Shown one piece after another: positions 6,495-28,764 of a DNA stretch of 42,130 bases. Position numbers and translations under genes: made by a program. The stretch is from a virus. Its lineage: Duplodnaviria > Heunggongvirae > Uroviricota > Caudoviricetes. The notes under the pieces were generated by a model that saw only the letters and a list, made by a program, of their open reading frames with translations, ran no database searches and was not told the origin of the DNA. The stretch lies in IMG/VR virus record IMGVR_UViG_2917398303_000001. One strand, written 5' to 3'. Position 1 is the first letter of the stretch. Every line of letters starts with the position of its first letter.

Positions 6495-6569
6495 GGCTGA
6501 ACTCCTGAAAATGGCTGTGAAAATATCGCCCGCGAAATGCCAGGCTGATTAGGAAAACAGGAAAGGGGA

Positions 6570-7638: not shown

Positions 7639-8108
7639 TAGTGAATATGCTTCGCCATATCCTCATGAGAAATGGGGCCACCATCTGCACTTCCCTTGCT
7701 CCATGCTGTACCAGGCGCATGTGTTAAGTTAGACAGTTCGGTACCTGAAAATTTCCCATATACTTCGATGATTTTATTGATAAGAGCTTGAGCTTCTTGA
7801 TCATCTTTTTGAATTGTAGGGGTGATTCTTTTTAATTCGCCATCACACTCTAAGATGACGCTAATCTTTTCAGTGATTTCGTTTGCTCCATACTTCTTCA
7901 ACATATGATAAAGCGGTGGAATAACAGGCCCGAATTTCCATCTGGCGAAAAGATCATCAAAAAGCGGTGTGTTGTCGCGTAACTTTAAATGCCATGATTG
8001 AGTATAAAAAAGAAGCTTCTGGAGCTTCATTGGAGTCAGATTCTTTAACTTACCCTTTAAAGCCTTTTCAATGAAGGCATTAGCAACCGCTGCAGCTGAG
8101 TAAGCCAT
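7638..8108 (-). CDS. Panacea-domain (DUF4065) protein, candidate antitoxin (PanA/SocA-like)
   Basis: 156-aa ORF with strong RBS AAGGAGGG; N-terminal region AAAVANAFIEKA...LKNLTPMKLQKLLFYTQSWHLKL...GPVIPPLY matches the conserved core of DUF4065/Panacea proteins as I recall it. Confidence 0.55.
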   Translation of the reverse strand: MAYSAAAVANAFIEKALKGKLKNLTPMKLQKLLFYTQSWHLKLRDNTPLFDDLFARWKFGPVIPPLYHMLKKYGANEITEKISVILECDGELKRITPTIQKDDQEAQALINKIIEVYGKFSGTELSNLTHAPGTAWSKGSADGGPISHEDMAKHIH

Positions 8109-8397
8109 GTTATGCCCTCCTTAACTGTATAAATAACCAGTTGTATAATGCTTGCATTTTACCTGAAAGGTAACTGTTAGTACATATTAATAACTTTATG
8201 TACATCCGTCACTTACAAAACGATAGGATTTATTGCTGTTTATCCTTATTAGGTAGCATATTATTCTGGTAAGGGGTGCTGGAAAGTTGTTTACTATATA
8301 TAGTGGTAGGGTGGCATAATTCAATACAACATAAAGTGTCATGGCGAGAGCTCTGGCTATCGCCATCATTAATATTGTCTATTATGTAGACATGGGA

Positions 8398-9090
8398 TTA
8401 ACCATGTTTCCTATACGTCTGCGGCATGCTCCCAATAACCTTACCGAAGATGAATACCCGGTTCATCTCGTCTTTCTCGATCGGGTCCCACGGTGAGTAG
8501 CTTTTGTTATCAGAGATGACCAGTAGCTTATCCTTCATCATTTGCAGGCGCTTTACATGGGCTGTGTCGTCATACAGAAACGCATAGATACCATCACCGT
8601 CGAAAGATTTAACCGTGATATCAACGAACAGCAGATCACCTGGTTCGATAGTTCCTGACATGCTGTCACCACGCACGTTAATGATGCGGATATTTTCCGC
8701 CTTCCTGCCATCGAACATGTGACGAGCATCGTCAAACGAGTACTCAACCGAGCGTAGGACTTCTACAAACTCACGGTTGATGACACCCGGCCCGGCACTG
8801 ACTTCTATATCAAGAACGTCAATCTTGAAGTATTTGGAATGGTTGACAGCAGGCTTCCCTGATTGTTGACCGTCATTTCTCATCGGGCCTATGCCTGATG
8901 AGAGCCACTCTGTTCGAACACCCAATGCATTAGCTATTTCAACAATTTTTGTTGAGCCGCGCGCGTTGCCGCTTGTCAGTCTCCAGATTGTGGGTTGAGC
9001 TACGCCAGACGCCTTTGCAAGAGCGCCTTGAGACATTCCAGATTGTTCCATCGCTAGGTTTAAGCGATCAGCAAGAGTTTCTTTTTTCAT
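8398..9090 (-). CDS. cI: CI-like prophage repressor (HTH plus S24 LexA-like peptidase domain)
   Basis: 231 aa from ATG at 9090 (the track ORF begins at an upstream TTG); N-terminal HTH (MSQGALAKASGVAQPTIWRL) and C-terminal S24 autopeptidase motifs (NVRGDSMSGTIEPGDLLFVD ... HVKRL); divergently oriented to cro. Confidence 0.85.
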   Translation of the reverse strand: MKKETLADRLNLAMEQSGMSQGALAKASGVAQPTIWRLTSGNARGSTKIVEIANALGVRTEWLSSGIGPMRNDGQQSGKPAVNHSKYFKIDVLDIEVSAGPGVINREFVEVLRSVEYSFDDARHMFDGRKAENIRIINVRGDSMSGTIEPGDLLFVDITVKSFDGDGIYAFLYDDTAHVKRLQMMKDKLLVISDNKSYSPWDPIEKDEMNRVFIFGKVIGSMPQTYRKHG

Positions 9091-9197
9091 AAGTTTTAAT
9101 TTATACGCTTGCGTATTGATGGTCAAAACACGTTTTGCTATTGCTTGGATTAATACGCATTGCTATTATCCATTCATTGCAATACCAATAGGAATTG
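9091..9197. promoter_or_regulatory. cI-cro intergenic operator/promoter region (OR-like)
   Basis: Divergent-gene spacer containing the perfect palindrome ATACGC-TT-GCGTAT (9103-9116), a related half-site AATACGCATTGC, and TTGCTATTG motifs. Confidence 0.6.
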
Positions 9198-9428
9198 ATG
9201 ATGACAAATCAAACCATTCAACTCGCAATCAGTATTACAGGTAGTCAAAAACGACTGGCAGATCTATGCGGTGTAGCCCAACCCACTGTTTGGCGTTGGC
9301 TACACGGTGGCGGAATTGATGCCCGCTATGTAATGAAAATTGTCTCAGCCACTGGTGGAAAGATTAAACCAGCAGATATTCGTCCCGACCTCGCACCATT
9401 GTTTAACGCGAGTAATTCTGCCGCCTAA
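9198..9428 (+). CDS. cro: Cro/YdaS-like HTH regulator
   Basis: About 76-aa ORF divergent from cI; HTH QKRLADLCGVAQPTVWRWL; ATG at 9198 follows AGGA. Confidence 0.75.
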   Translation: MMTNQTIQLAISITGSQKRLADLCGVAQPTVWRWLHGGGIDARYVMKIVSATGGKIKPADIRPDLAPLFNASNSAA

Positions 9429-9452
9429 ACTGCGGCGTTAACTGATAAGGCA

Positions 9453-9998
9453 ATGACTATGCAACCACTTACATACCAACAGACTAGCGGATTTAGCCCG
9501 ACTGCGGTGATAAATCGTTCTCAAACAAAACAGGTGCCAGGCCACGAAAAAATCCGTGATGCCGTTCGCGCCTGGTCGGCTGCAGATAATCAGGATGTTG
9601 TTGCCGCACTCATTGTGAATGAGTATCGGGAGCAGGGCGGCGGCACCATCGATTTCCCTGATGATGTCAGCCGTGCACGCCAGAAGCTGTTCCGCTTCCT
9701 CGATAACAAATTCGATTCTGAAAAATACCGAAATAACGTGCGTGAACTGACCCCGGCAATTCTGGCGGTACTACCGCTGGAATATCGCGGTTACCTGGTT
9801 AAGCAGGATAGCTTCATGGCTCGGCTGGCTGAAATGGAAAAGGAACTCAGTGAAGCAAAACAGGCTGTCATTCTCAACGCGCCACGCCACCAGAAACTGA
9901 AGGAGATGAGTGAAGGCATTGTGTCGATGTTTCGTGTGGACCCGGATCTGGCTGGTCCATTGATGGCGATGGTCACCACCATGCTGGGGGCGATATGA
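9453..9998 (+). CDS. YdaT-family regulator (likely CII functional analogue)
   Basis: 181-aa ORF directly after cro where lambda has cII; recalled resemblance to Rac YdaT-type proteins (EYREQGGG ... PAILAVLP). Confidence 0.45.
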   Translation: MTMQPLTYQQTSGFSPTAVINRSQTKQVPGHEKIRDAVRAWSAADNQDVVAALIVNEYREQGGGTIDFPDDVSRARQKLFRFLDNKFDSEKYRNNVRELTPAILAVLPLEYRGYLVKQDSFMARLAEMEKELSEAKQAVILNAPRHQKLKEMSEGIVSMFRVDPDLAGPLMAMVTTMLGAI

Positions 9999-10084
9999 CA
10001 GGTTCAGAAATGGCGAAAGCCGGTCTGCTGGAACAGAACCGACTTTCAGGTGCAAATCGTAACGCACTCATTGCGGGAGGAATT

Positions 10085-11014
10085 ATGGCAAACACTGCTG
10101 AGATATTCAATTTTCCAGTGCCGGATGTGGCACAAAAGGAGCCGCGCGTGGCAGATCTCGATGATGGTTATACGCGCATTGCAAATGAGTTGCTGGAAGC
10201 TGTGATGCTGGCCGGATTAACACAGCACCAGCTTCTGGTCTTCCTGGCTGTCATGCGCAAAACATATGGCTTTAATAAAAAACTGGATTGGGTGAGCAAC
10301 GAGCAACTTTCCGAGTTGACCGGGATATTGCCGCACAAGTGTTCTGCTGCAAAAAGTGTTCTGGTAAAGCGTGGGATTTTTATTCAGAGCGGGCGGAATA
10401 TCGGCATCAATAATGTGGTCAGTGAATGGTCAACATTACCCGAATCAGGTAAGAAAAATAAAGTTTACCTGAAAGAGGTAAATTTACCTGAATCAGGTAA
10501 GAAAAGTTTACCTAAATCAGGTAAAGGCGTTTACCCGAATCAGGTAAACACAAAAGACAAACTAACAAAAGACAATATAAAACCTTTTTCGTCCGAGAAT
10601 TCTGGCGAATCCTCTGACCAGCCAGAAAACGATCTTCCTGTGGAGAAACCGAATGCTGCAATTCAGAGCGGCAGCAAGTGGGGGACAGCAGAAGACCTGA
10701 CCGCCGCAGAGTGGATGTTTGACATGGTGAAGACCATCGCGCCATCAGCCAGAAAACCGAATTTTGCAGGGTGGGCTAACGATATCCGCCTGATGCGTGA
10801 ACGTGACGGACGTAACCACCGCGACATGTGCGTGCTGTTCCGCTGGGCATGCCAGGACAACTTCTGGTCCGGTAACGTGCTGAGTCCGGCCAAACTCCGC
10901 GACAAGTGGACCCAGCTCGAAATCAACCGAAACAAGCAACAGGCTGGCGTGACAGCCGGCAAGCCAAAACTCGACCTGACGAACACTGACTGGATTTACG
11001 GGGTGGAGCTATGA
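10085..11014 (+). CDS. O: replication initiator O (non-lambda N-terminal ori-binding domain, lambda-type C-terminal domain)
   Basis: ATG at 10085 after GGGAGG RBS (MANTAEIFNF...); C-terminal 110 aa match lambda O; iterons lie inside the gene. Confidence 0.9.
   Translation: MANTAEIFNFPVPDVAQKEPRVADLDDGYTRIANELLEAVMLAGLTQHQLLVFLAVMRKTYGFNKKLDWVSNEQLSELTGILPHKCSAAKSVLVKRGIFIQSGRNIGINNVVSEWSTLPESGKKNKVYLKEVNLPESGKKSLPKSGKGVYPNQVNTKDKLTKDNIKPFSSENSGESSDQPENDLPVEKPNAAIQSGSKWGTAEDLTAAEWMFDMVKTIAPSARKPNFAGWANDIRLMRERDGRNHRDMCVLFRWACQDNFWSGNVLSPAKLRDKWTQLEINRNKQQAGVTAGKPKLDLTNTDWIYGVEL
10436..10590 (+). repeat. replication origin: five 17-18-bp iterons (TTTACCYGAATCAGGTAA) followed by an AT-rich stretch
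   Basis: Direct repeats at 10436-10452, 10464-10481 (degenerate), 10483-10500, 10507-10524 and 10530-10547, then ACACAAAAGACAAACTAACAAAAGACAATATAAAACC; same architecture as ori-lambda inside O. Confidence 0.8.
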
Positions 11015-11712
11015 AAAACATCGCCGCACAGATGGTTAATTTTGACCGTGAGCAGATGCGCCGGATCGCCAATAACATGCCGGAACAGTACGACGAAAAG
11101 CCGCAGGTACAGCAGGTAGCGCAGATTATCAATGGTGTGTTCAGCCAGTTACTGGCAACTTTCCCGGCGAGCCTGGCTAACCGGGACCAGAATGAACTGA
11201 ACGAAATCCGCCGCCAGTGGGTTCTGGCTTTCCGGGAAAATGGGATCACCACGATGGAACAGGTTAACGCTGGAATGCGCGTAGCCCGTCGGCAGAATCG
11301 ACCATTCCTGCCATCACCCGGGCAGTTTGTCGCCTGGTGCCGGGAAGAAGCATCCGTTATTGCCGGACTGCCAAACGCCAGCGAGCTGGTTGATATGGTT
11401 TACGAGTATTGCCGGAAGCGTGGACTGTATCCAGATGCAGAGTCTTATCCGTGGAAATCAAACGCGCACTACTGGCTGGTTACCAATCTGTACCAGAACA
11501 TGCGGGCCAATGCGTTGACTGACGCGGAATTACGGCGCAAGGCTGCCGATGAACTGTCCTGTATGACCGCGCGAATTAACCGTGGTGAGGCTATACCTGA
11601 ACCAGTAAAACAACTTCCTGTCATGGGCGGTAGACCTCTAAATCGTGCACAGGCTCTGGCGAAGATCGCAGAAATCAAAGCTAAGTTCGGACTGAAAGGA
11701 GCCAGTGTATGA
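11011..11712 (+). CDS. P: replication protein P (DnaB helicase loader)
   Basis: 233-aa ORF near-identical to lambda P (MKNIAAQMVNFDREQMRRIANNMPEQYDEKPQVQQVAQIINGVF...); start overlaps the O stop. Confidence 0.97.
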   Translation: MKNIAAQMVNFDREQMRRIANNMPEQYDEKPQVQQVAQIINGVFSQLLATFPASLANRDQNELNEIRRQWVLAFRENGITTMEQVNAGMRVARRQNRPFLPSPGQFVAWCREEASVIAGLPNASELVDMVYEYCRKRGLYPDAESYPWKSNAHYWLVTNLYQNMRANALTDAELRRKAADELSCMTARINRGEAIPEPVKQLPVMGGRPLNRAQALAKIAEIKAKFGLKGASV

Positions 11713-12002
11713 CGGGAAAAGAAGCAATTATTCATTACCTGGGGACGCATAAGAGCTTCTGTGCGCAGGACGTTGCTGCGGTAACAGGCGCAACAGTAAC
11801 CAGCATAAATCAGGCTGCGGCTAAAATGGCGCGGACAGGAATCTTAGTCATTGATGGTAAGGTCTGGCGAACGGTGTATTACCGGTTCGCTACCAGGGAA
11901 GAACGGGAAGGAAAGGTGAGCACGAATCTGATTTTCAAGGAGTGTCGCCAGAGTGCCGCGATGAAGCGGGTGTTGGCATTTTATCGCGGCAATTTTCAAT
12001 AG
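11709..12002 (+). CDS. ren: Ren (rex-exclusion resistance)
   Basis: 97-aa ORF matching lambda Ren (MTGKEAIIHYLGTH...GKVWRTVYYRFATREEREGK...). Confidence 0.9.
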   Translation: MTGKEAIIHYLGTHKSFCAQDVAAVTGATVTSINQAAAKMARTGILVIDGKVWRTVYYRFATREEREGKVSTNLIFKECRQSAAMKRVLAFYRGNFQ

Positions 12003-12039
12003 ACTATGTACATAAAAATATCATTTTTTTAATACATGT

Positions 12040-12231
12040 CTAATTATTGGACGAAATTGGTTTTTGCTTTGGTTTAGTTAGCCTAGCAATCAAGCCAGAG
12101 GCAATAATGATGATCCAAGCAATTTGATGCAATGCTACTCCAATATAAGAACCTTTATAGATAATAAAGGCATAGATCGCTAGAAACGAAATAAATATCC
12201 ATAACGAAAGTTGATAAATTTTGGCGCGCAT
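12040..12231 (-). CDS. small hydrophobic protein (63 aa, 2 predicted TM helices)
   Basis: ATG at 12231; two hydrophobic segments; lies in an AT-rich island; no RBS or homology verified. Confidence 0.3.
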   Translation of the reverse strand: MRAKIYQLSLWIFISFLAIYAFIIYKGSYIGVALHQIAWIIIIASGLIARLTKPKQKPISSNN

Positions 12232-12487
12232 ATTTAATCCAATCAATCAGAAAGACGAGTAATCATAGAGGTACTATCACCCGGGTAACTATTGCTATTA
12301 TGAACGGATAGGATAGAGGCTTCAATAACATATGCATCAAGTATGATGGAATATGTAGATGAAAATGACTTGTGTCAAATTTGTGGAAATGAGTACCATG
12401 TTTCTCTGAAATTGATGTCGTTAATGGCTAGTGATAGTGAACTTTTTTACTTTATAATTCCTTTGGTTATAACAATAAGGTAAATTT

Positions 12488-13048
12488 ATGAAGAAGATAA
12501 TATTATTAGCCATGATTATTGGTTCTTTAACAGGTTGCGCTAGTGTGCCACCATTGAATTTTTCAACACCTAACGTGGGAGTTAGCCAGAAAAAAATAGA
12601 TGCTGAAATTAAGTCATTAACGGTATCACTTGCTCGTCCAGATGAGCAGAAAGGGGATATCACTGCTGGTATGGAGGCTATAACTCCAATTTGGCGTGAA
12701 TCTTTGCAGGAAGCACTCGACCGAATGACTATTTTTCGTGATAGTTCACCAAATACGGTTAGCTTAAATGTTAAAGTGTTGGCTCTTGACGTTCCTGCTT
12801 TTGGTGTTTCAATGACAACTAAAGCAATTGCAAGGTATGAAATAATCAACCGTGCGAATGGTGATATTATATATACGCAGGATATTGAGTCTACCGGTAC
12901 TGTTCCAGCCAGTTACGCATTCTACGGTATTGTTCGAGCACGCGAATCTGTTAATCGCGCGGTGCAAAACAACATAACGCAGTTCTTGCAAGCATTAGAA
13001 AGTGTTGATCTTTCTCGTCCAATGTTTCCTGTTAGGGTAGCTAAATGA
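12488..13048 (+). CDS. lipoprotein (186 aa), unknown function
   Basis: Signal peptide with lipobox MKKIILLAMIIGSLTGC; AT-rich codon usage unlike flanking phage genes. Confidence 0.7.
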   Translation: MKKIILLAMIIGSLTGCASVPPLNFSTPNVGVSQKKIDAEIKSLTVSLARPDEQKGDITAGMEAITPIWRESLQEALDRMTIFRDSSPNTVSLNVKVLALDVPAFGVSMTTKAIARYEIINRANGDIIYTQDIESTGTVPASYAFYGIVRARESVNRAVQNNITQFLQALESVDLSRPMFPVRVAK

Positions 13049-13497
13049 AGCGATTATTCGTAATTGCTCCACTCTTAGTGTTGGTTGGATGCGCACAAAA
13101 TATATCGCCAAATAGTTATTCTGTTGGCTCTGTGGGCATGGTTAATCGAACTATCGCTGGTACAGTTATTAGTGCCAGGGGGGTTGATATCAGTGGGACT
13201 TCCGCGTTAGGCGGGACTGCTGGGGCTGCCGTGGGGGCAACCGCTGGTTCTGCGCTTGGTGGGGGAGTTCGTTCTAATATCGTTGGTGCCGTTGGTGGTG
13301 CAGTCATTGGTGGTATTGCCGGGGCAGCAATCGAATCTTCAGCAACAAAACAAACAGGCATGGAATATGTTGTCGAAACTGAGAATGGGAATTTAATGAC
13401 CATTGTTCAAGGCAAAGAGCCGTTATTTACTCAAGGAAGTAAGGTCCTTGTTTTATACGGAAACCCTTCTCGCATAATAACAGACCCGCGTCACTAA
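13045..13497 (+). CDS. SlyB-like glycine-zipper outer-membrane lipoprotein
   Basis: Lipobox LLVLVGC; central Gly/Ala-zipper (GGTAGAAVGATAGSALGGGVRSNIVGAVGGAVIGGIAGAAI); C-terminal segment resembles E. coli SlyB; overlaps the upstream lipoprotein stop. Confidence 0.7.
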   Translation: MKRLFVIAPLLVLVGCAQNISPNSYSVGSVGMVNRTIAGTVISARGVDISGTSALGGTAGAAVGATAGSALGGGVRSNIVGAVGGAVIGGIAGAAIESSATKQTGMEYVVETENGNLMTIVQGKEPLFTQGSKVLVLYGNPSRIITDPRH

Positions 13498-13687
13498 CAT
13501 ACCTTTTGATTTTGTAAAATCAATTCGTAATAATAAAGTCATCGGAGCTTGAACAACTCCGGTGACTTCTGCGCTAAACGGGGACGTTTATGCGCGCATA
13601 CAATCCAAACTCTCTTCTACCGTCACAGATGCAGAAATGCACCTGTGGTTCTTTGCATCCAACGTTTGACCTCTGCGGAGGTGAAGC

Positions 13688-14143
13688 GTGAACCTCCCAC
13701 AAGACGGCATCAAATTACATCGCGGCAACTTCACCGCTATCGGCCAGCAGATCCAGCCTTATCTGGAGGACGGAAAATGCTTTCGCATGGTGCTTAAACC
13801 GTGGCGTGAGAAACGCAGTCTTTCCCAGAATGCACTCAGCCACATGTGGTACAGCGAAATCAGTGAATACCTCATCAGCAGGGGGAAATCGTTCGCTACT
13901 GCAGTATGGGTAAAAGATGCACTCAAACACACATACCTCGGTTATGAAACCAAGGACCTGGTTGATGTCGTAACCGGCGAAATCACTACGATCCAGTCGT
14001 TACGCCATACCTCCGATCTTGATACCGGAGAGATGTATGTCTTCCTGTGTAAGGTTGAAGCCTGGGCGATGAATATTGGCTGCCACCTGACTATTCCGCA
14101 GAGCTGCGAGTTCCAGCTGCTGCGCGACAAGCAGGAGGCGTAA
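13688..14143 (+). CDS. YbcN-like protein (DLP12-type nin region)
   Basis: 151-aa ORF with GTG start after GAGGTG RBS; recalled near-identity to DLP12 YbcN. Confidence 0.75.
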
Positions 14144-14313
14144 TGGCTACACCGCTTATTCGTGTCATGAACGGACACATCTACAGAGTACCAAATCGTC
14201 GTAAGCGTAAGCCTGAGCTGAAACCATCCGAAATACCAACACTGCTCGGGTATACCGCCAGCCTGGTTGATAAAAAATGGTTGCGACTGGCAGCAAGGAG
14301 GAGTCATGGCTGA
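14143..14313 (+). CDS. ninE: NinE-like small basic protein (56 aa)
   Basis: Hand-translated ORF below track cutoff: [56 protein letters not shown]; ATG overlaps the preceding stop. Confidence 0.55.
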   Translation: MATPLIRVMNGHIYRVPNRRKRKPELKPSEIPTLLGYTASLVDKKWLRLAARRSHG

Positions 14314-14596
14314 TTTGAGAAAAGCAGCGTGTGGTCGGGAATGCCAGGTAAGAATCCCTGGCGTATGTAATGGCAACCCTGAAACGTCTGTACTGGCACA
14401 TATCCGGCTGGCTGGATTGTGCGGCACCGGTATTAAACCGCCAGACCTGATTGCCACCATTGCATGTTCTGCCTGTCACGATGAGATCGACCGTCGCACG
14501 AATTTTGTTGACGCTGGATATGCAAAAGAATGCGCGCTGGAAGGTATGGCGAGAACGCAGGTTATCTGGCTGAAAGAAGGGGTAATCAAGGCGTGA
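14306..14596 (+). CDS. YbcO-like (DUF1364) protein
   Basis: 96 aa from ATG at 14306 after AGGAGGA RBS; Cys-rich ([13 protein letters not shown]...CSACH); sits before rusA as in DLP12. Confidence 0.8.
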
Positions 14597-14955
14597 ATAC
14601 TTACTACATCACACTACCCTGGCCGCCGAGCAATAACCGCTACTACCGCCATAATCGCGGGCGCACGCACATCAGCGCAGAGGGGCAGGTATACCGCGAT
14701 AACGTCGCCCGAATCATCAAAGGCTCCATGCTGGATATCGGTCTGGCTATGCCAGTGAAAATCCGTATTGAGTGCCACATGCCGGATCGCCGTCGCCGTG
14801 ACCTGGATAATCTGCAAAAAGCAGCTTTTGACGCACTCACCAAAGCAGGTTTCTGGCTGGATGATGCTCAGGTCGTTGATTATCGCGTTGTGAAAATGCC
14901 CGTTACCAAGGGTGGAAAGCTGGAACTGATCATCACCGAACTGGGGGATGAATGA
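14593..14955 (+). CDS. rusA: Holliday-junction resolvase RusA
   Basis: 120 aa from GTG at 14593, which overlaps the ybcO stop; sequence [25 protein letters not shown]...[28 protein letters not shown] matches RusA. Confidence 0.9.
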
Positions 14956-15035
14956 TGTGTGAGTCATATATGGCAGAACTCCTTCGCTACCGCTGGGTGC
15001 GCCTGCGCTTATATCGTTTCCCGGTTCTGTTTTGA
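14952..15035 (+). CDS. very small ORF (27 aa) in the ylcG position
   Basis: [27 protein letters not shown]; ATG overlaps the rusA stop; identity to YlcG not verified. Confidence 0.25.
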
Positions 15036-15171
15036 CCGATTACCGGATACTGAAGAATTACGCCAAAACACTGGCAGAGACAATTGTATGAAGCCAGAGA
15101 TAACGATCGGTTGATGCCGTTTTATTGTTTTTTGCTGCCAATTGGCGTGCTGGTGTAAATGGAGAGCGAGA

Positions 15172-15924
15172 ATGAATCTTGAGGCCTTACCAAAATATTA
15201 CTCCCCAAAATCTCCAAAATTGAGCGATGACGCACCGGCGACAGACTCAGGTGGTTTATCAATTACGGATGTGATGGCTGCGCAGGGGATGGTGCAGTCG
15301 AAAGCACCGCTTGGGTTTGCCTTATTCCTGGCAAAAGTTGGTGTTCAGGACCCTCAGTTTGCGATTGAAGGTCTGCTCAATTACGCGATGGCACTGGATA
15401 ACCCGACATTGAATAAATTGAGTGCAGAAACACGGTTACAGATTATTCCTTACCTCGTGAATTTTGCCTTTGCTGATTATTCCAGGTCTGCGGCAAGTAA
15501 GGCTCGCTGTGAGCATTGTGCTGGTACGGGATTTCATAATGTATTGCGCGAAGTGGTGAAACATTCCAGAAGCGGGGAATCCGTTATCAAGGAAGAGTGG
15601 GTGAAGGAACTATGTCAGCATTGTCATGGTAAGGGAGAAGTCAGCACAGCGTGCAGAGGGTGTAAGGGTAAAGGTATTGTCCTGGATGAAAAAAGGACCC
15701 GGCTTCATGGCACGCCTGTTTATAAGATTTGTGGGCGTTGCAATGGAAACCGGTTTAGCCGTTTACCAACCACACTGGCGCGGCATCATGTCCAGAAACT
15801 GGTACCGGACCTGACGGATTATCAGTGGTACAAGGGGTATGCTGATGTTATTGATAAACTGGTTACAAAGTGCTGGCAGGAAGAAGCATATGCAGAAGCA
15901 CAGTTGAGAAAAGTGACAAGATAA
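15172..15924 (+). CDS. late-gene antiterminator Q (DLP12/phage 82 type)
   Basis: 250 aa from ATG at 15172; multiple CxxC zinc motifs (CEHCAGTG, CQHCHGKG, CRGCKGKG, CGRCNGN); followed by a promoter and early terminator as expected for PR'/qut/tR'. Confidence 0.8.
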   Translation: MNLEALPKYYSPKSPKLSDDAPATDSGGLSITDVMAAQGMVQSKAPLGFALFLAKVGVQDPQFAIEGLLNYAMALDNPTLNKLSAETRLQIIPYLVNFAFADYSRSAASKARCEHCAGTGFHNVLREVVKHSRSGESVIKEEWVKELCQHCHGKGEVSTACRGCKGKGIVLDEKRTRLHGTPVYKICGRCNGNRFSRLPTTLARHHVQKLVPDLTDYQWYKGYADVIDKLVTKCWQEEAYAEAQLRKVTR

Positions 15925-15955
15925 ATAATTTTCGCCGAAGATATCGACATGATGC

Positions 15956-15990
15956 TTGCATTTTTCAAAAAATATGGATAGGATTTTCTC
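15956..15990 (+). promoter_or_regulatory. candidate late promoter PR' (Q-dependent)
   Basis: TTGCAT (15956-15961), 17-nt spacer, TAGGAT (15979-15984), immediately downstream of Q and upstream of a terminator. Confidence 0.45.
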
Positions 15991-16031
15991 AACGATGGGC
16001 TTTGTATGTCCGGTGTTGAGAAAAAGTAGAA

Positions 16032-16058
16032 AACCCGCTAATGAGCGGGTTTTTGTGT
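16032..16058 (+). terminator. tR'-like intrinsic terminator
   Basis: Stem ACCCGC / GCGGGT with loop TAATGA, then TTTTTGTGTTTT. Confidence 0.7.
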
Positions 16059-16292
16059 TTTAAATGGGGAGGTGGCTGGATGTCTAAAATAAACATTGCT
16101 TCCAAGTGTACAACTATGCGTTAATGGCTGCGTCGGTTTGAAGAACAGACGATATACGAAGTAGTTTACTAAAGCAGTTCTCATTTCAGGTGTTATTCAC
16201 TTATTCCTTCTTTGAGTCTCTCCAATTAAGTACGAAGTCGTTTCTGTTATACAAATCATTTATGCCGAAAGGCTCAAGTTAAGGAATGTAGA

Positions 16293-16508
16293 ATGTCAAA
16301 TAAAATGACTGGTTTAGTAAAATGGTTTAACGCTGATAAAGGTTTTGGCTTTATTTCTCCTGTTGATGGTAGTAAAGATGTGTTTGTGCATTTTTCTGCA
16401 ATTCAGAATGATAATTATCGAACCTTATTTGAAGGCCAAAAGGTTACCTTCTCTGTAGAGAGTGGTGCTAAAGGTCCTGCAGCAGCAAATGTCATTATTA
16501 CTGATTAA
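16293..16508 (+). CDS. CspA-family cold-shock protein
   Basis: 71-aa ORF with RNP motifs ([12 protein letters not shown]; VFVHFSAI); about 230-nt upstream leader, as is usual for csp genes. Confidence 0.9.
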
Positions 16509-16708
16509 AATTCATAGCTTGTCTGTATACGATAACGAAGAAGGCTGATGCCTGAGTAGAGATGCAGATAGAGTTGTGGGTATTGAATCCCATTTTGTGG
16601 TGAAGTGCAGGTTTGCTGCATGAATAGTTTTACAGTAGAAGCTAACTGCTGGCATAGCAATACAAAGTGCGTAAGTGGGTAACTACCACAAAAAGCACCA
16701 CAATCTCA

Positions 16709-16731
16709 AACCCGCGCAGGCGGGTTTTTTA
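16709..16731 (+). terminator. intrinsic terminator downstream of csp
   Basis: Stem CCCGC / GCGGG with loop GCAG, followed by TTTTTT. Confidence 0.6.
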
Positions 16732-16789
16732 TTATCTGATTTAAATATATTATTAAAATATAAAAACTCTTTGTAAGTAATCAAAACAC

Positions 16790-16960
16790 TCAGGCAACAG
16801 CTTTAAGATTTGTTTGGAATACTTTGTTGCAATGAGGGCAGATCAAAAGGGCACCTTTTTGTACTCTAGAAAAACTGTGTTCTGATTCTTGGGTACAGTG
16901 TGGGCAGGAACATTTTACGAGATAATTACGGCGTGATTTTGAGTCTTTACGTTCTGACAT
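16790..16960 (-). CDS. small zinc-ribbon protein (56 aa)
   Basis: Hand-translated: MSERKDSKSRRNYLVKCSCPHCTQESEHSFSRVQKGALLICPHCNKVFQTNLKAVA, with two CxxC pairs; below track cutoff. Confidence 0.35.
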   Translation of the reverse strand: MSERKDSKSRRNYLVKCSCPHCTQESEHSFSRVQKGALLICPHCNKVFQTNLKAVA

Positions 16961-17181
16961 AGGCTTTTCCTGTATAAATGGCCGTATACATTACACTAAA
17001 TAGAAAAATATATCCCGCATTATTATTTAATAGATGGTTTTTCTTTTAAAATATTTAACCACATTATTTTAATTTTCTGTTTTTTGAGCGTCGTTGAGAA
17101 CAACGTTTGCTGTAAAAACTAACCCGTAGACTCCGATCTTTTCAAACATATTGCACCATCCGTGTACATCGGGGTGAGGAT

Positions 17182-17397
17182 ATGAAATCAATGGATAAGT
17201 TAACAACAGGTGTCGCCTATGGCACCTCTGCAGGCAGTGCTGGCTACTGGTTTTTACAGTTGCTCGATAAAGTCACGCCATCACAGTGGGCGGCAATAGG
17301 TGTGCTGGGTAGTCTGGTATTTGGCCTGCTGACGTACCTGACAAACCTTTATTTCAAGATTAAAGAAGATAAGCGTAAGGCTGCGAGAGGTGAATAA
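17182..17397 (+). CDS. S: class II holin (phage 21 S-type pinholin) with dual-start motif
   Basis: 71 aa, MKSMDK dual-start, two TM helices, charged C-terminus; matches S21. Confidence 0.9.
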
Positions 17398-17894
17398 TGT
17401 CGCCATCATTACGCAAGGCTGTTGCAGCTGCTATTGGTGGTGGGGCTGTTGCCATAGCGTCTGTGCTCATCACTGGTCCGAGTGGTGACGATGGTCTGGA
17501 AGGTGTCAGCTACATACCATATAAAGATATCGTTGGCGTATGGACTGTATGTTACGGGCACACCGGAAAAGACATTATGCTCGGTAAAACGTATACCGAA
17601 GCAGAATGCAAAGCCCTCCTGAATAAAGACCTTGCCACTGTCGCCAGACAAATTAACCCGTACATCAAAGTCGATATACCGGAAACAACGCGCGGCGCTC
17701 TTTACTCGTTCGTCTATAACGTGGGCGCAGGCAATTTCAGAACATCTACTCTTCTTCGCAAAATAAACCAGGGCGATATCAAGGGCGCATGTGACCAGCT
17801 ACGTCGCTGGACATACGCTGGCGGTAAGCAATGGAAAGGCCTGATGACTCGTCGTGAGATTGAGCGTGAGGTCTGTTTGTGGGGGCAACAATGA
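17397..17894 (+). CDS. R: SAR endolysin (phage lysozyme, T4-lysozyme-like fold)
   Basis: 165 aa; N-terminal Gly/Ala-rich signal-anchor-release segment ([20 protein letters not shown]) then lysozyme domain; start overlaps the holin stop. Confidence 0.9.
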
Positions 17895-18328
17895 GCAGAG
17901 TCACCGCGATTATCTCCGCTCTGGTTATCTGCATCATCGTCTGTCTGTCATGGGCTGTTAATCATTACCGTGATAACGCCATCACCTACAAAAAGCAGCG
18001 TGATAAGGCCGCATCCATTATCGCTGACATGCAGAAGCGTCAACGTGATGTAGCAGAACTCGACGCCAGATATACAAAGGAGCTTGCTGATGCTAACGCG
18101 ACTATCGAAAGTCTTCGTGCTGATGTTTCTGCTGGGCGTAAGCGCCTGCAAGTCGCCGCCACCTGTGCAAAGTCAACGACCGGAGCCAGCGGCATGGGCG
18201 ATGGAGAAAGCCCAAGACTTACAGCAGATGCTGAACTCAATTATTACCGTCTCCGAAGTGGAATCGACAAGATAACCGCGCAGGTTAACTACCTGCAGGA
18301 GTACATCAGGACGCAATGCCTGAAATAA
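17891..18328 (+). CDS. Rz: i-spanin Rz
   Basis: ATG at 17891; N-terminal TM helix then coiled coil; contains the embedded Rz1 frame. Confidence 0.85.
18084..18275 (+). CDS. Rz1: o-spanin Rz1 (lipoprotein embedded in the +1 frame of Rz)
   Basis: 63-aa ORF entirely within Rz; lipobox LLGVSAC; proline-rich mature region. Confidence 0.75.
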
Positions 18329-18360
18329 TTTTTTTGCAAATCACAAAGTCAATTTAATGA

Positions 18361-18385
18361 GCCTCGCGATGCGGGGCTTTTTTAT
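18361..18385 (+). terminator. intrinsic terminator after the lysis cassette
   Basis: Stem GCCUCGC / GCGGGGC (one G-U pair), loop GAU, then UUUUUUAU. Confidence 0.6.
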
Positions 18386-18530
18386 GTCCGCAGTAAACGC
18401 GCTTCACACGCGCGACTTATGAACACAGAACCTTTCAGGATGACCCTTGAGGATGCCGGTTTGGTGATCGGTGCCTTTCTGTGGGCCGGAATCCTGTGTG
18501 ACAAGGTTCATCACTAAAAGGTGAACACTG

Positions 18531-19073
18531 ATGAATTATCCAACTATCGTTAACGGCATCGATTTCCGAGATCTGATTTTTGTGGCAAACAACGATCCGG
18601 TTACAGATTCTTTTATGGTGGCAAAAGCATTTGGAAAGCTGCCGAAGAACGTAGTTCGTGACATTGAACGAACCATAGAAGCTTGCCCTCCTGAGTTTGA
18701 TACAAAGCTCAACTTTGAGCTTTGCTATAAAAACAATGAGTTACAGAATGGTAAGCCGCAAAAATTCTACCGTCTCCGCAAGGATGGGTTGATGCTTTTG
18801 GTTATGTCCTACACCAAAAAAGAAGCAATGCGTATCAAAATTGCTTACATCAACGCATTCAACTGGATGTACGCCATGCTTCAGGTTGGTCATCGTCAAT
18901 TTGAAGAAGAGCGAAACGCCGTAATGCTGGAGTACATGAAAGAAAAGGATGTCGCCAGCATGTCTGGCCGTCTGCTCAATCGCTGGGGAAAAATTAAGAA
19001 GCCTCAGCTAATGGCGAGAATTGAACGCCTTGAACAGCACGGGCAAACCGTAATCCCCGGACTCACTAATTAA
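18531..19073 (+). CDS. Rha-family phage regulatory protein
   Basis: 180-aa ORF with AAAGGTGA RBS; N-terminal region (VTDSFMVAKAFGKLPKNVVRDIERTIE) resembles the Rha domain. Confidence 0.55.
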   Translation: MNYPTIVNGIDFRDLIFVANNDPVTDSFMVAKAFGKLPKNVVRDIERTIEACPPEFDTKLNFELCYKNNELQNGKPQKFYRLRKDGLMLLVMSYTKKEAMRIKIAYINAFNWMYAMLQVGHRQFEEERNAVMLEYMKEKDVASMSGRLLNRWGKIKKPQLMARIERLEQHGQTVIPGLTN

Positions 19074-19810: not shown

Positions 19811-19822
19811 GGGCGGAAGGCG
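19811..19822. other. cosN: 12-nt cohesive-end site (GGGCGGAAGGCG), flanked by lambda-like cosQ and cosB
   Basis: Flanking sequence (GTTACG | 12-mer | CGCGGGTTTTCGCTATTTATGAAAATTTTCCGG...) matches the lambda cos context, immediately upstream of nu1. Confidence 0.65.
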
Positions 19823-19999
19823 CGCGGGTTTTCGCTATTTATGAAAATTTTCCGGTTTAAGGCGTTTCCGTTCTTCTTCGCCGTAACTTAATGTTTTTAT
19901 TTAAAACACCCTCTGAAAAGAAAGGAAACGACAGGTGCTGAAAACGGGCTTTTTGGCCTCTGTCGTTTCCTTTCTCTGTTTTTGTCCGTGGAATGAACA

Positions 20000-20519
20000 A
20001 TGGAAGTCAACAAAAAGCAGCTGGCTGACATTTTCGGTGCGAGTATCCGTACCATTCAGAACTGGCAGGAGCAGGGAATGCCCGTTCTGCGGGGTGGTGG
20101 CAAGGGTAATGAGGTGCTTTATGACTCTGCCGCCGCCATAAAATGGTATGCCGAAAGGGATGCTGAAATTGAGAACGAAAAGCTGCGCCGGGAGGTTGAA
20201 GAACTGCGACAGGCCAGCGAGACAGATCTCCAGCCAGGCACTATTGAGTACGAACGCCATCGACTTACGCGTGCGCAGGCCGACGCACAGGAGCTGAAGA
20301 ATGCCAGAGACTCCGCTGAAGTGGTGGAAACCGCATTCTGTACTTTCGTGCTGTCGCGGATCGCAGGTGAAATTGCCAGTATTCTCGACGGGATCCCCCT
20401 GTCGGTGCAGCGGCGTTTTCCGGAACTGGAAAACCGACATGTTGATTTCCTGAAACGGGATATCATCAAAGCCATGAACAAAGCAGCCGCGCTGGATGAT
20501 CTGATACCGGGGTTGCTGA

Positions 20520-20545
<26 letters not shown>
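20000..20545 (+). CDS. nu1: terminase small subunit Nu1
   Basis: 181-aa ORF near-identical to lambda Nu1 (MEVNKKQLADIFGASIRTIQNWQEQGMPVLRGGGKGNEVLYDSAAAIKWY...). Confidence 0.97.
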
Positions 20546-24226
<3,681 letters not shown>

Positions 24227-24246
<20 letters not shown>

Positions 24247-25546
24247 TCTCCCGCATATTGCCAGTATGGCCTTTAATGAGCCGCTGATGCTTGAACCCGC
24301 CTATGCGCGGGTTTTCTTTTGTGCGCTTGCAGGCCAGCTTGGGATCAGCCGCCTGACGGATGCGGTGTCCGGCGACAGCCTGACTGCCGGAGAGGCACCC
24401 GCGACGCTGGCGTTATCCGGTGATGATGGCGGGCCACGACAGGCCCGCAGTTATCAGGTCATGAACGGCATCGCCGTGCTGCCGGTGTCCGGCACGCTGG
24501 TCAGCCGGACGCGGGCGCTGCAGCCGTATTCGGGGATGACCGGTTACAACGGCATTATCGCCCGTCTGCAACAGGCTGCCAGCGATCCGATGGTGGACGG
24601 CATTCTGCTCGATATGGACACGCCCGGCGGGATGGTGGCGGGGGCATTTGACTGCGCTGACATCATCGCCCGTGTGCGTGACATAAAACCGGTATGGGCG
24701 CTGGCCAACGACATGAACTGCAGTGCAGGTCAGCTGCTTGCCAGTGCCGCCTCCCGGCGTCTGGTCACGCAGACCGCCCGGACAGGCTCCATCGGCGTCA
24801 TGATGGCTCACAGTAATTACGGTGCAGCCCTGGAGAAACAGGGCGTGGAAATCACGCTGATTTACAGCGGCAGCCATAAGGTGGATGGCAACCCCTACAG
24901 CCATCTTCCGGATGACGTCCGGGAGACACTGCAGTCCCGGATGGACGCAACCCGCCAGATGTTTGCGCAGAAGGTGTCGGCATATACCGGCCTGTCTGTG
25001 CAGGCTGTGCTGGATACCGAGGCTGCAGTGTACAGCGGTCAGGAGGCCATTGATGCCGGACTGGCTGATGAACTTGTTAACAGCACCGATGCGATCACCG
25101 TCATGCGTGATGCACTGGATGCACGTAAATCCCGTCTCTCAGGAGGGCGAATGACCAAAGAGACTCAATCAACAACTGTTTCAGCCACTGCTTCGCAGGC
25201 TGACGTTACTGACGTGATGCCCGCGACGGAGGGCGAAAACGCCAGCGCGGCGCAGCCGGACGTGAATGCGCAGATCACCGCAGCGGTTGCGGCAGAAAAC
25301 AGCCGCATTATGGGGATCCTCAACTGTGAGGAGGCTCACGGACGCGAAGAACAGGCTCGCGTGCTGGCAGAAACCCCCGGTATGACCGTGGAAACGGCCC
25401 GCCGAATTCTGGCCGCAGCACCACAGAGTGCACAGGCGCGCAGTGACACTGCGCTGGATCGTCTGATGCAGGGTGCACCGGCACCGCTGGCTGCAGGTAA
25501 CCCGGCATCTGATGCCGTTAACGATTTGCTGAACACACCAGTGTAA
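24227..25546 (+). CDS. C: head protease / minor capsid protein C
   Basis: 439 aa from GTG at 24227 (the track ORF starts further upstream); matches lambda gpC; overlaps the B 3' end. Confidence 0.92.
24941..25546 (+). CDS. nu3: scaffolding protein Nu3 (in-frame internal start within C)
   Basis: Internal ATG at 24941 (MDATRQMFAQKV...) in the C frame, the same nested arrangement as lambda C/Nu3. Confidence 0.65.
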   Translation: MDATRQMFAQKVSAYTGLSVQAVLDTEAAVYSGQEAIDAGLADELVNSTDAITVMRDALDARKSRLSGGRMTKETQSTTVSATASQADVTDVMPATEGENASAAQPDVNAQITAAVAAENSRIMGILNCEEAHGREEQARVLAETPGMTVETARRILAAAPQSAQARSDTALDRLMQGAPAPLAAGNPASDAVNDLLNTPV

Positions 25547-25555
25547 GGGATGTTT

Positions 25556-25888
25556 ATGACGAGCAAAGAAACCTTTACCCATTACCAGCCGCTGGGCAAC
25601 AGTGACCCGGCTCATACCGCAACCGCGCCCGGCGGATTGAGTGCGAAAGCACCTGCAATGACCCCGCTGATGCTGGACACCTCCACCCGTAAGCTGGTTG
25701 CGTGGGATGGCACCACCGACGGTGCTGCTGTTGGCATTCTTGCGGTTGCTGCTGACCAGACCAGCACCACGCTGACGTTCTACAAGTCCGGCACGTTTCG
25801 TTATGAGGATGTGCTCTGGCCGGAGGCTGCCAGCGACGAGACGAAAAAACGGACCGCGTTTGCCGGAACGGCAATCAGCATCGTTTAA
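25556..25888 (+). CDS. D: head decoration protein D
   Basis: 110 aa ([12 protein letters not shown]...) matching lambda gpD; the second ATG has the better RBS spacing. Confidence 0.95.
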
Positions 25889-25909
25889 CTTTACCCTTCA
25901 TCACTAAAG

Positions 25910-25931
25910 GCCGCCTGTGCGGCTTTTTTTT
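25910..25931 (+). terminator. hairpin plus U-tract between D and E
   Basis: Stem GCCGC / GCGGC with loop CTGT, followed by TTTTTTTT. Confidence 0.5.
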
Positions 25932-25944
25932 ACGGGATTTTTTT

Positions 25945-26970
25945 ATGTCGATGTACACAACCGCCCAGCTGCTGGCGGCAAATGAGCAGAAATTTAAGTT
26001 TGATCCGCTGTTTCTGCGTCTCTTTTTCCGTGAAAGCTATCCCTTCACCACGGAGAAAGTCTATCTCTCACAAATTCCGGGACTGGTAAACATGGCGCTG
26101 TACGTTTCGCCGATTGTTTCCGGTGAGGTTATCCGCTCCCGTGGCGGCTCCACCTCTGAATTTACGCCGGGATATGTCAAGCCGAAGCATGAGGTGAATC
26201 CGCAGATGACCCTGCGTCGCCTGCCGGATGAAGATCCGCAGAATCTGGCGGACCCGGCTTACCGCCGCCGTCGCATCATTATGCAGAACATGCGTGACGA
26301 AGAGCTGGCCATTGCCCAGGTCGAAGAGATGCAGGCAGTTTCTGCCGTGCTTAAGGGCAAATACACCATGACCGGTGAAGCCTTCGATCCGGTTGAGGTG
26401 GATATGGGCCGCAGTGCGGCGAATAACATCACGCAGTCCGGCGGCACGGAGTGGAGCAAGCGTGACAAGTCCACGTATGACCCGACCGACGATATCGAAG
26501 CCTACGCGCTGAACGCCAGCGGTGTGGTGAATATCATCGTGTTCGATCCGAAAGGCTGGGCGCTGTTCCGTTCCTTCAAAGCCGTCAAGGAGAAGCTGGA
26601 TACCCGCCGCGGCTCTAATTCCGAGCTGGAGACAGCGGTAAAAGACCTGGGCGAAGCGGTGTCCTATAAGGGGATGTATGGCGATGTGGCGATCGTCGTG
26701 TATTCCGGACAGTACGTGGAAAACGACGTCAAAAAGAACTTCCTGCCGGACAACACGATGGTGCTGGGGAACACTCAGGCACGCGGTCTGCGCACCTATG
26801 GCTGCATTCAGGATGCGGACGCACAGCGCGAAGGCATTAACGCCTCTGCCCGCTACCCGAAAAACTGGGTGACCACCGGCGATCCGGCGCGTGAGTTCAC
26901 CATGATTCAGTCAGCACCGCTGATGCTGCTGGCTGACCCTGATGCGTTCGTGTCCGTACAACTGGCGTAA
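25945..26970 (+). CDS. E: major capsid protein E
   Basis: 341-aa ORF near-identical to lambda gpE. Confidence 0.97.
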   Translation: MSMYTTAQLLAANEQKFKFDPLFLRLFFRESYPFTTEKVYLSQIPGLVNMALYVSPIVSGEVIRSRGGSTSEFTPGYVKPKHEVNPQMTLRRLPDEDPQNLADPAYRRRRIIMQNMRDEELAIAQVEEMQAVSAVLKGKYTMTGEAFDPVEVDMGRSAANNITQSGGTEWSKRDKSTYDPTDDIEAYALNASGVVNIIVFDPKGWALFRSFKAVKEKLDTRRGSNSELETAVKDLGEAVSYKGMYGDVAIVVYSGQYVENDVKKNFLPDNTMVLGNTQARGLRTYGCIQDADAQREGINASARYPKNWVTTGDPAREFTMIQSAPLMLLADPDAFVSVQLA

Positions 26971-27011
26971 TCGTGGCCCTTCGGGGCCATTTTCTCTCTG
27001 TGGAGGAGTCC

Positions 27012-27410
27012 ATGACGAAAGATGAACTGATTGCCCGTCTCCGGTCGTTGGGTGAGCAACTGAACCGTGATGTCAGCCTGACGGGGACGAAAGAAGAATT
27101 GGCGCTCCGTGTGGCAGAGCTGGAAGAAGAGCTTGATGACACGGATGACACTGCCGGTCAGGACACCCCTCTCAGCCCGGAAAATGTGCTGACCGGGCAT
27201 GAAAATGAGGCTGTATCAGCGCAGCCGGATACCGTGATTCAGGATGCGGCTGATCTGGTCACGGTCGTGGCACTGGTGACGCTGCACACCGATGCACTTC
27301 ACGCCACGCGGGATGAAACTGTGGCATTTGTGCTGCCGGGAACGGCGTTTCGTGTCTCTGCCGGTGTGGCAGCCGAAATGACAGAACGTGGCCTGGCCAG
27401 AATGCAATAA
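27012..27410 (+). CDS. FI: DNA packaging protein FI
   Basis: 132 aa from ATG at 27012 after GGAGGA; matches lambda gpFI. Confidence 0.93.
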   Translation: MTKDELIARLRSLGEQLNRDVSLTGTKEELALRVAELEEELDDTDDTAGQDTPLSPENVLTGHENEAVSAQPDTVIQDAADLVTVVALVTLHTDALHATRDETVAFVLPGTAFRVSAGVAAEMTERGLARMQ

Positions 27411-27421
27411 CGGGAGGCGCT

Positions 27422-27775
27422 GTGGCTGATTTCGATAACCTGTTCGATGCTGCCATTGCCCGCGCCGATGAAACGATACGCGGGTACATGGGAACGTCAG
27501 CCACCATGACATCCGGTGAGCAGTCCGGTGCGGTGATACGTGGTGTTTTTGATGACCCTGAAAATATCAGCTATGCCGGACAGGGCGTGCGCGTTGAAGG
27601 CTCCAGCCCGTCCCTGTTTGTCCGGACTGATGAGGTGCGGCAGCTGCGGCGTGGAGACACGCTGACCATCGGTGAGGAAAACTTCTGGGTAGATCGGGTT
27701 TCGCCGGATGATGGTGGAAGCTGTCATCTCTGGCTTGGACGGGGCGTACCGCCTGCCGTTAACCGTCGCCGCTGA
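27422..27775 (+). CDS. FII: head-tail connector protein FII
   Basis: 117-aa ORF with GTG start; matches lambda gpFII. Confidence 0.93.
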   Translation: MADFDNLFDAAIARADETIRGYMGTSATMTSGEQSGAVIRGVFDDPENISYAGQGVRVEGSSPSLFVRTDEVRQLRRGDTLTIGEENFWVDRVSPDDGGSCHLWLGRGVPPAVNRRR

Positions 27776-27786
27776 AAGGGGGATGT

Positions 27787-28757: not shown

Positions 28758-28764
28758 GGACGAT

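Follow-up and report, generated by a model that had tools for sequence, protein, structure and literature searches.

The lysis cassette described here most likely (probability of roughly 93%) consists of the late-operon lysis genes of a lambdoid prophage, which would act through the phage 21-type pinholin, SAR-endolysin and spanin pathway. The cassette is intact but ordinary, and the combination of S21-type lysis genes with lambda-type structural genes is already known, for example in the classical phage 434. The window, i.e., the whole stretch of 42,130 nucleotides that was analysed, holds a lambdoid prophage that is nearly complete and has inserted at tRNA-Thr(CGT) beside proA (Table 1). Four intact and tightly packed lysis ORFs, S, R, Rz and Rz1, were located on the plus strand within positions 17182-18328. 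The stop codon of S overlaps the ATG of R (TAATG), and the stop codon of R overlaps the start of Rz (ATGA). All four proteins matched their expected Pfam families, with scores far over both the curated cut-offs and chance. A sequence-only reading had proposed a four-gene lysis cassette in this region, and each ORF was found at the coordinates that it had given. In NCBIfam, no family was retrieved for S or Rz1, and the matches of R and Rz were sub-threshold only.

The analysis found no evidence against the pinholin, SAR-endolysin and spanin reading, and the appropriate annotation is antiholin/pinholin for S, SAR endolysin for R, i-spanin for Rz and o-spanin for Rz1. In isolated phages the same cassette is annotated as holin, endolysin, Rz and Rz1. 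The pinholin/SAR pathway, the embedded Rz/Rz1 arrangement and lambdoid mosaicism are all established; the cassette therefore matters little beyond its correct annotation. A modest value lies in the indication that the lysis cassette is not a single unit of exchange, as the holin and endolysin appear to travel together while the periplasmic region of the spanins appears to be swapped separately.

Table 1. Positions of the features in and around the lysis cassette of the window.
Feature	Position	Strand	Evidence or remark
proA	1-1254		
tRNA-Thr(CGT)	1369-1444		
Integrase	1459-2622	-	
Late-gene antiterminator Q, Q82/QuuQ-type	15172-15924	+	Pfam PF03589 Antiterm, E=4e-53
Candidate late promoter pR'	15944-15973	+	Consensus scan, 9/12
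Strong intrinsic terminator, candidate tR'	16029-16054	+	11-bp stem and T-run; assigned by position
cspB-like cold-shock region, insertion between Q and S	16132-16727	+	CDS 16293-16508, Pfam CSD
cspA-type 5' thermoregulator of the cspB-like gene	16132-16524		Rfam RF01766, 155.9 bits
Own terminator of the cspB-like gene	16708-16727		
ynfU-like small zinc-ribbon gene	16790-16960	-	Pfam PF23499 YnfU, E=4e-31; ynfU in SF-468
Two adjacent Shine-Dalgarno-like elements, GGGGT and GAGGA	17171-17180	+	Read from sequence
S, 71 aa, begins MKSMDK	17182-17397	+	Pfam PF04971; identity to phage 21/434 S
S, putative 68-aa product from Met4	17191-17397	+	MKSM start; hydropathy profile as S21
R, 165 aa, predicted SAR endolysin, T4-lysozyme-type muramidase	17397-17894	+	Pfam PF00959
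Rz, 145 aa, i-spanin	17891-18328	+	Pfam PF03245
Rz1, 61 aa, lipoprotein o-spanin, +1 frame, wholly within Rz	18090-18275	+	Pfam PF06085
Intrinsic terminator-like hairpin directly after Rz	18359-18379	+	9-bp stem, 6 GC pairs, then TTTTTT
Rha/ORF11CD3 gene	18531-19073		As in Shigella phage POCJ13
cos and lambda-type head/tail genes Nu1 to J	19811-38247	+	12-nt overhang 19811-19822; blastn, tblastn

The holin and the endolysin

The phage 21 holin S21-68 makes small (∼2 nm) heptameric holes, which depolarise the membrane while folded proteins are held back (PMC9636201, PMC7312051). The present S matched the Pfam family PF04971 'Bacteriophage P21 holin S' with 121 bits (cut-off 26, E=2e-35), and the match extended over profile positions 1-63 of 64. 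Its alignment to phage 21 S gave 61 identical residues out of 71 (86%), and the S proteins of phage 434 and of approximately 40 further phage records are 100% identical to it. The ten substitutions relative to phage 21 S include W27L and Q30K, which lie in or next to the aromatic patch and loop, and the phage 21 gene is only 72-85% identical at the nucleotide level. In common with phage 21 (OL657228, 39866-40578), the cassette has the MKSM dual start, a class II holin of 71 residues and two TMDs, the second of which contains G40/S44/G48, a 165-residue SAR lysozyme with E35/D44/T50, genes that overlap at their stop and start codons, and a location following Q. Between pR' and S, phage 21 carries tRNA genes, whereas cspB and ynfU are found here. 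The formation of heptameric pinholes by the present S is a prediction transferred by homology only.

The dual-start motif MKSMDK was found at 17182-17199, providing Met1 and Met4 as alternative starts, with the longer form gaining the extra basic residue Lys2. Both Shine-Dalgarno-like elements upstream match in position the two ribosome-binding sites annotated for S71/S68 in phage 434. By analogy with S21-71, the 71-residue product from Met1 would be the antiholin. The 68-residue product from Met4 would likewise be the pinholin, after S21-68, whose functional roles are described in the phage 21 literature (PMC9636201; bioRxiv 10.1101/2021.04.20.440580). RNA folding of the region around the dual start (17150-17235) detected no significant structure; its energy of -18.2 kcal/mol corresponded to z = +0.9, and 164 of 200 shuffled sequences folded at least as well. 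We therefore claim no regulatory hairpin at this position.

Hydropathy was calculated as the mean Kyte-Doolittle (KD) value, and the TM and SAR calls were made from hydropathy together with homology. In S, TMD2 covers approximately residues 36-57 (17287-17352) and includes G40, S44 and G48; with a KD of 1.72 over residues 36-54, it is a strong TM segment. TMD1, at approximately residues 7-28 (17200-17265), is 55% Gly/Ala/Ser/Thr and its KD of 0.70 lies under the standard TM threshold, a profile that matches the TMD1 of phage 21 S (KD 0.52). On activation, the TMD1 of the pinholin exits the bilayer (bioRxiv 10.1101/2021.04.20.440580; PMC9636201). A weakly hydrophobic TMD1 combined with a stable TMD2 is thus the pattern expected of a pinholin. 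The sequence-only reading had called S a pinholin type with an MKSM dual start, which the motif, the identity to S21 and the Pfam match bear out. It had further ascribed two TM helices to S; this description holds for a stable TMD2 accompanied by a releasable TMD1, but not for TMD1 as a segment that reaches the threshold by itself.

SAR endolysins are recognised by a weakly hydrophobic TMD that basic residues precede and by the catalytic motif E-X8-D-X5-T (PMC9239132). The present R shows these published sequence features. Its SAR segment spans residues 8-27 (17418-17477) directly after the basic residues R6 and K7, with a KD of 2.09 and 63% Gly/Ala/Ser/Thr over residues 8-26, and the catalytic triad E35-X8-D44-X5-T50 is intact. 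R matched the PF00959 phage lysozyme family with 159 bits. It is identical to R21 at 158 of 165 positions (96%, E=7e-108), a protein whose structure was solved at full length in the inactive state (PDB 3HDE) and in the active form (PDB 3HDF). In its N-terminus only two substitutions relative to R21 were observed, P2S and I18V, of which I18V is the sole one inside the SAR segment. R is also 97% identical to the phage 434 endolysin and ∼97% identical to E. coli RrrD (PDB 4ZPU, E=1e-108).

The hydropathy profile and the 96% identity to R21 together underlie the assignment of R as a SAR endolysin. The defining test of this class is Sec-dependent export without cleavage, with release on depolarisation or by the pinholin (PMC9239132). 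From its identity to R21, which has been solved in both conformations, we infer that R would be exported by Sec uncleaved and released from the membrane. A Gly/Ala-rich SAR N-terminus in place of the lambda R protein had been proposed from the sequence, together with an alignment to S21/R21 as a check and an endolysin devoid of a SAR segment as the finding that would count against it. The alignments agreed with the proposal, and hydropathy analysis located the segment.

A canonical lambda-type system, with a large-hole holin and a soluble cytoplasmic endolysin, would agree with three features that are as in lambda: the S-R-Rz/Rz1 order, the structural genes, and the location of the cassette after Q and before cos. 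However, lambda S is a 107-residue protein with three TMDs, whereas the present S has 71 residues and a class II pattern. The present R belongs to the GH24 lysozymes and its N-terminus is hydrophobic, whereas the lambda R control showed no hydrophobic window (maximum KD 0.04). No blastn match to lambda was obtained for the S and R genes. The 33% identity of S to lambda S on forced global alignment and the 27% identity of R to lambda R on global alignment are spurious values between unrelated proteins. A lambda-type holin and endolysin are thus refuted by the sequence, and this reading retains next to no probability.

The embedded spanins and the mosaic junctions

Embedded spanin architecture was defined as in PMC6139136, and each of its features was observed in the present pair: Rz has a TMD and a periplasmic domain, Rz1 has a lipobox, and the Rz1 gene lies inside Rz in the +1 frame. 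The full embedding of Rz1, which the sequence-only reading had stated, is evident from the coordinates of the two genes. The Pfam scores were 125 bits for Rz against PF03245 and 72.6 bits for Rz1 against PF06085 (Rz1 lipoprotein precursor). The N-terminal TMD of Rz (residues 4-22, 17900-17956) has a KD of 2.63 and is followed by a periplasmic helical domain, and on these sequence features Rz is predicted to be a type II inner-membrane protein. Rz1 carries the lipobox VSAC, with the codon of Cys20 at 18147-18149, and its mature part is Pro-rich. The Rz1 ORF extends from 0.45 to 0.88 of the Rz length, which is close to the typical range of embedded spanins, where the o-spanin starts at 0.4-0.5 and ends at 0.9-1.0 of the i-spanin length (PMC6139136).

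Lambda spanins share with the present pair the +1-frame embedded Rz1, with these same relative start and end points (0.45 and 0.88), the N-terminal Rz TMD, the lipobox, the Pro-rich mature Rz1 and two periplasmic Rz cysteines. They differ in that the present Rz is 8 residues shorter and the present Rz1 has PPP in place of the penta-proline and no equivalent of C29. Alignment to the phage 21 Rz and Rz1 did not reveal close identity. For Rz the identity was 62% to phage 21, 60% to phage 434 and 63% to lambda, compared with 96% to PhiR49_1; for Rz1 it was 37%, 37% and 38% to phage 21, phage 434 and lambda, respectively. The Rz/Rz1 pair of phage 21 is itself lambda-type and nearly identical to that of lambda. 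The Rz1 ORF of the window is nearly unchanged in PhiR49_1, Stx2a_F349 and E. coli CRE10, and is annotated as Rz1 in AP012530. Judged from these alignments, the present Rz/Rz1 is an allele known from Stx phages and PhiR49_1 and is not phage 21-type. The label 'phage 21-type', which had been given to the whole cassette, is therefore correct for S and R and has to be withdrawn for the spanins.

A sliding-window nucleotide comparison, together with blastn, placed the junctions between these alleles inside Rz, at ∼17880-17990 and at 18149. The region 17100-17880, which contains S and R, is 100% identical to the prophage of E. coli SF-468, which occupies the same proA/tRNA-Thr site. The similarity to SF-468 stops at 18149, exactly at the Rz1 lipobox Cys codon. 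The similarity to phage 21, phage 434 and lambda is high only across the part of Rz that codes for the TMD, to ∼17985. That of phage 21 then falls sharply, remains partial (65-78%) to ∼18149 and is at background level thereafter. From ∼17970 to the end of the cassette, the sequence is 97-100% identical to the allele of PhiR49_1, Stx2a_F349 (1717 group) and E. coli CRE10. On this comparison, recombination between known alleles gave rise to the cassette, in which a holin/endolysin unit is joined to a spanin unit. As the spanins are not phage 21-type, the 'lysis module' did not move as one unit.

One and the same stretch of DNA encodes the C-terminal half of Rz and all of mature Rz1, which interact with each other, and the two were therefore inherited together. 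This region behaves as an exchange unit of its own. A mid-gene switch of allele, from a lambda/21-like N-terminus to a different C-terminal half, together with a mature Rz1 lacking the counterpart of lambda Rz1 C29, might be taken to indicate a mismatched and non-functional spanin pair, in which case lysis would halt at the outer membrane. Several observations make such a failure very improbable. Isolated, plaque-forming phages (PhiR49_1, ev099 and the Stx2 phages 1717 and 2851) carry both of these Rz and Rz1 alleles side by side at 96-100% identity, and the shared DNA keeps the two interacting regions together. Furthermore, Rz retains the periplasmic residues Cys92 and Cys143, which align with lambda C99 and C152. 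The requirement of a periplasmic Cys for intermolecular disulfides is in this way provided by Rz, as mature Rz1 has none. In lambda, a single disulfide of either Rz C152 or Rz1 C29 suffices for spanin function (PMC6139136). Since the present Rz retains C143 at the position of C152, the Cys-less mature Rz1 is of no concern.

The 1.3-kb cassette is widespread, matching 5227 of 5426 complete E. coli genomes, with a median of 3 copies per genome, and 368 phage records. The query coverage was at least 80% in 716 of the complete genomes. The exact mosaic was found in no complete E. coli genome at ≥99% over the full length, and each of its pieces is a known allele.

Prophage context and integrity

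The early region of the prophage contains exo/bet/gam, a LexA-like repressor and the O/P replication genes. As a separate observation, the host proA is unlike that of any complete E. coli genome. Exact-pattern scans of a collection of species-representative genomes gave no match to a 57-mer across the Rz junction or to a 32-mer of proA. The start of Q was taken from a 250-residue homologue annotated in E. coli SF-468, and Q is probably the regulator of the lysis cassette, which lies downstream of it. The promoter scan after Q returned a 9/12 match that was no better than in shuffled sequence, and the candidate pR' was placed by position only. The gene order Q-cspB-S is also found in the phages 2H10, PhiR63_1 and HannyBb. 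PhiR49_1 and ev099 share the present spanin allele, but have ompD upstream instead of cspB. Past the Rha/ORF11CD3 gene, the order continues with cos and then Nu1.

The mechanism that we propose follows what has been described for phage 21 and lambda (PMC9636201, PMC7312051, PMC9239132, PMC6139136). Since all of its steps are carried over from orthologues, they are known for the present alleles by homology alone. RNA polymerase modified by Q would start from pR' and read across the cspB insertion into S-R-Rz/Rz1. R would be exported by Sec, and its SAR segment would hold it in the inner membrane, tethered and inactive. Meanwhile, S68 would build up, held back by S71, in which the extra Lys2 would slow the exit of TMD1. 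Once TMD1 of S68 leaves the bilayer, TMD2 would suddenly form small heptameric pinholes, leading to collapse of the proton motive force. Depolarisation would free the SAR segment, allowing R to refold and cut the peptidoglycan, after which the Rz-Rz1 complex would fuse the inner and outer membranes.

Two single-base deletions relative to lambda and phage 21 were observed among the tail genes. One reduces A7 to A6 at ∼30462-30468 in H (tape-measure), and the other reduces TT to T at ∼38914 in stf (side tail fibre); both cause a frameshift. As a result of these frameshifts, the prophage may be unable to make infectious particles despite its intact lysis genes. They raise the possibility that a defective prophage retains the cassette as a relic, silent or put to use by the host, like essD-rrrD-rzpD of DLP12 in E. 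coli K-12. Likewise, NCBI names homologues essD/rrrD in thousands of E. coli genomes, many of them in cryptic prophages.

Although the DLP12 cassette (essD-rrrD-rzpD/rzoD) encodes the closely similar RrrD, DLP12 is a decayed cryptic prophage, whereas the present prophage is essentially complete. The four lysis ORFs, the integrase, the repressor, the replication genes, Q and all head and tail genes other than H and stf are full length. Sequencing errors could account for both frameshifts, each of which falls in a run of one base (an A7 homopolymer and a TT doublet); laboratory lambda, too, has a frameshifted stf and remains viable. A relic is accordingly an unlikely, though conceivable, state of the cassette, and the question bears on whether the cassette is used and not on what the cassette is.

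If the frameshifts are real, a more specific possibility is a tail-defective prophage in an atypical Escherichia-like host, in which the cassette has been selected for a host function. In that event, an intact Q-controlled cassette would serve, for example, altruistic lysis or the release of vesicles, DNA or toxins, and not phage release. Intact ORFs are, however, equally expected for a prophage that was recently inactivated or mis-sequenced, and we consider selection for a host function very improbable.

Lambda-type structural genes and cross-phage assortment

The reference genomes compared were phage 21 (OL657228), lambda (NC_001416) and the right end of phage 434 (OL657227). Positions 19823-38247 of the window aligned to lambda 13-18437 with 96.7% nucleotide identity over 18,427 nt (blastn). 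By tblastn, each of the 20 lambda proteins Nu1 to J had a counterpart in the window, with identities of 89-100%, mostly 97.5-100%, with the lowest values for M (89%), J (90%) and FI (92%). The head genes of phage 21 are only 66-71% identical to the present ones at the nucleotide level, and its tail genes are 95% identical. The lambda-type structural background described in the sequence-only reading is thereby confirmed. The lambda cosN 12-mer was absent from the window even when one mismatch was allowed, and the cos overhang is a variant 12-nt sequence unlike that of lambda.

Lambdoid phages are textbook mosaics, in which lysis and structural modules are exchanged. Phage 434 and the environmental lambda-like phages ev099, 2G7b, 4A7, 1W/3W and PhiR49_1 combine an S21-type holin and a SAR endolysin with lambda-type structural genes, the latter at 95-96% nucleotide identity to the present ones. 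In 434, 4A7 and 1W, Rz/Rz1 is lambda-type and the similarity to the present cassette ends inside Rz. The independent exchange of the lysis module is supported by phage 434, since its identical S stands beside lambda-type structural genes. The sequence-only reading had regarded this exchange as confirmed by the window itself; the comparative data favour it, but a single genome cannot confirm it, and the module is not one unit.

Further evidence was obtained from 78 viral contigs with exactly the same cos, in which the upstream lysis genes were typed; many of these loci are truncated, and the assortment counts are therefore small. S21-type S was paired with R21-type R in all nine cases and lambda S with lambda R in all three (9/9 and 3/3). 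This co-assortment fits a functional coupling of holin type to endolysin type. Rz1 assorted freely. Next to S21-type S/R it was of the type found in the window in four cases, SF-468-type in three and lambda-type in one, and next to lambda S/R the window type was again found in three. The observed pattern supports the independent exchange of the lysis and structural modules and shows a spanin unit that is separately mobile.

Reading frames of the tail genes

Features discussed here and their coordinates.
Feature	Window position	Strand	Remark
Host region with proA	1-1460		
127-aa ORF	7255-7638	-	
Panacea (SocA-like antitoxin) domain gene	7638-8108	-	
Gene at cII position	9453-9998	+	
Two genes inserted between Q and S	16132-16960		second is ynfU (zinc ribbon), reverse strand
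Rz-cos interval genes	18419-19073		
32-aa ORF	18419-18517		hydrophobic core; before Rha/ORF11CD3 gene
Rha/ORF11CD3 regulatory-type gene	18531-19073		between Rz and cos
cos 12-nt overhang	19811-19822		GGGCGGAAGGCG
Tape-measure gene H	30352-32912		frameshift at about 30462-30468
Side tail fibre gene stf	38772-40834		single-base deletion at about 38914

The frame of two tail genes was found to be interrupted. In H, the window carries a run of six A residues where both lambda and phage 21 have seven; the residues matching lambda H 1-39 are therefore in a different frame from those matching 37-853, and a stop codon follows soon after the frameshift. The missing A reflects either a genuine mutation that inactivates H or a sequencing error in the homopolymer. 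In stf, a single T replaces the TT of lambda and phage 21, which separates the first 48 codons from the remaining 637 aa. Taken with the frameshift in H, this deletion suggests that, provided the sequence is correct, the prophage may be defective in its tail.

The cos site and its upstream interval

The cos overhang differs from that of lambda (GGGCGGCGACCT), in contrast to the flanking cosB/Nu1 region, which resembles that of lambda. The same overhang was observed in the prophage of E. coli SF-468 and in 78 IMG/VR contigs, which identifies it as a natural variant in common circulation rather than a mistake in the sequence. Between Rz and cos, the Rha/ORF11CD3 gene occupies the site at which lambda and phage 21 carry bor, and it is preceded by a short ORF for which no family match was found. 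Over this stretch (18419-19073), identity with Shigella phage POCJ13 is 95%.

Accessory genes in the early and late regions

The Panacea gene is directly followed and overlapped by the 127-aa ORF, to which no Pfam family was assigned. Both are flanked by the recombination genes on one side and the repressor on the other; the two may constitute a toxin-antitoxin or defence pair within the immunity region. The early right operon is not lambda-like at this point, since SF-468 annotates the match of the gene at the cII position as a "toxin YdaT domain-containing protein". Of the insertions between Q and S, the cspB-like cold-shock gene has its own terminator and a 5' UTR that comprises a full cspA thermoregulator (Rfam, 155.9 bits).

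Host lineage

Exact-pattern scans of species-representative genomes gave no match. The window proA reached a best identity of 96.8% among 5426 complete E. coli genomes, and differed from that of SF-468 at 64 of 1254 nt; the host may belong to an atypical or non-coli Escherichia lineage.
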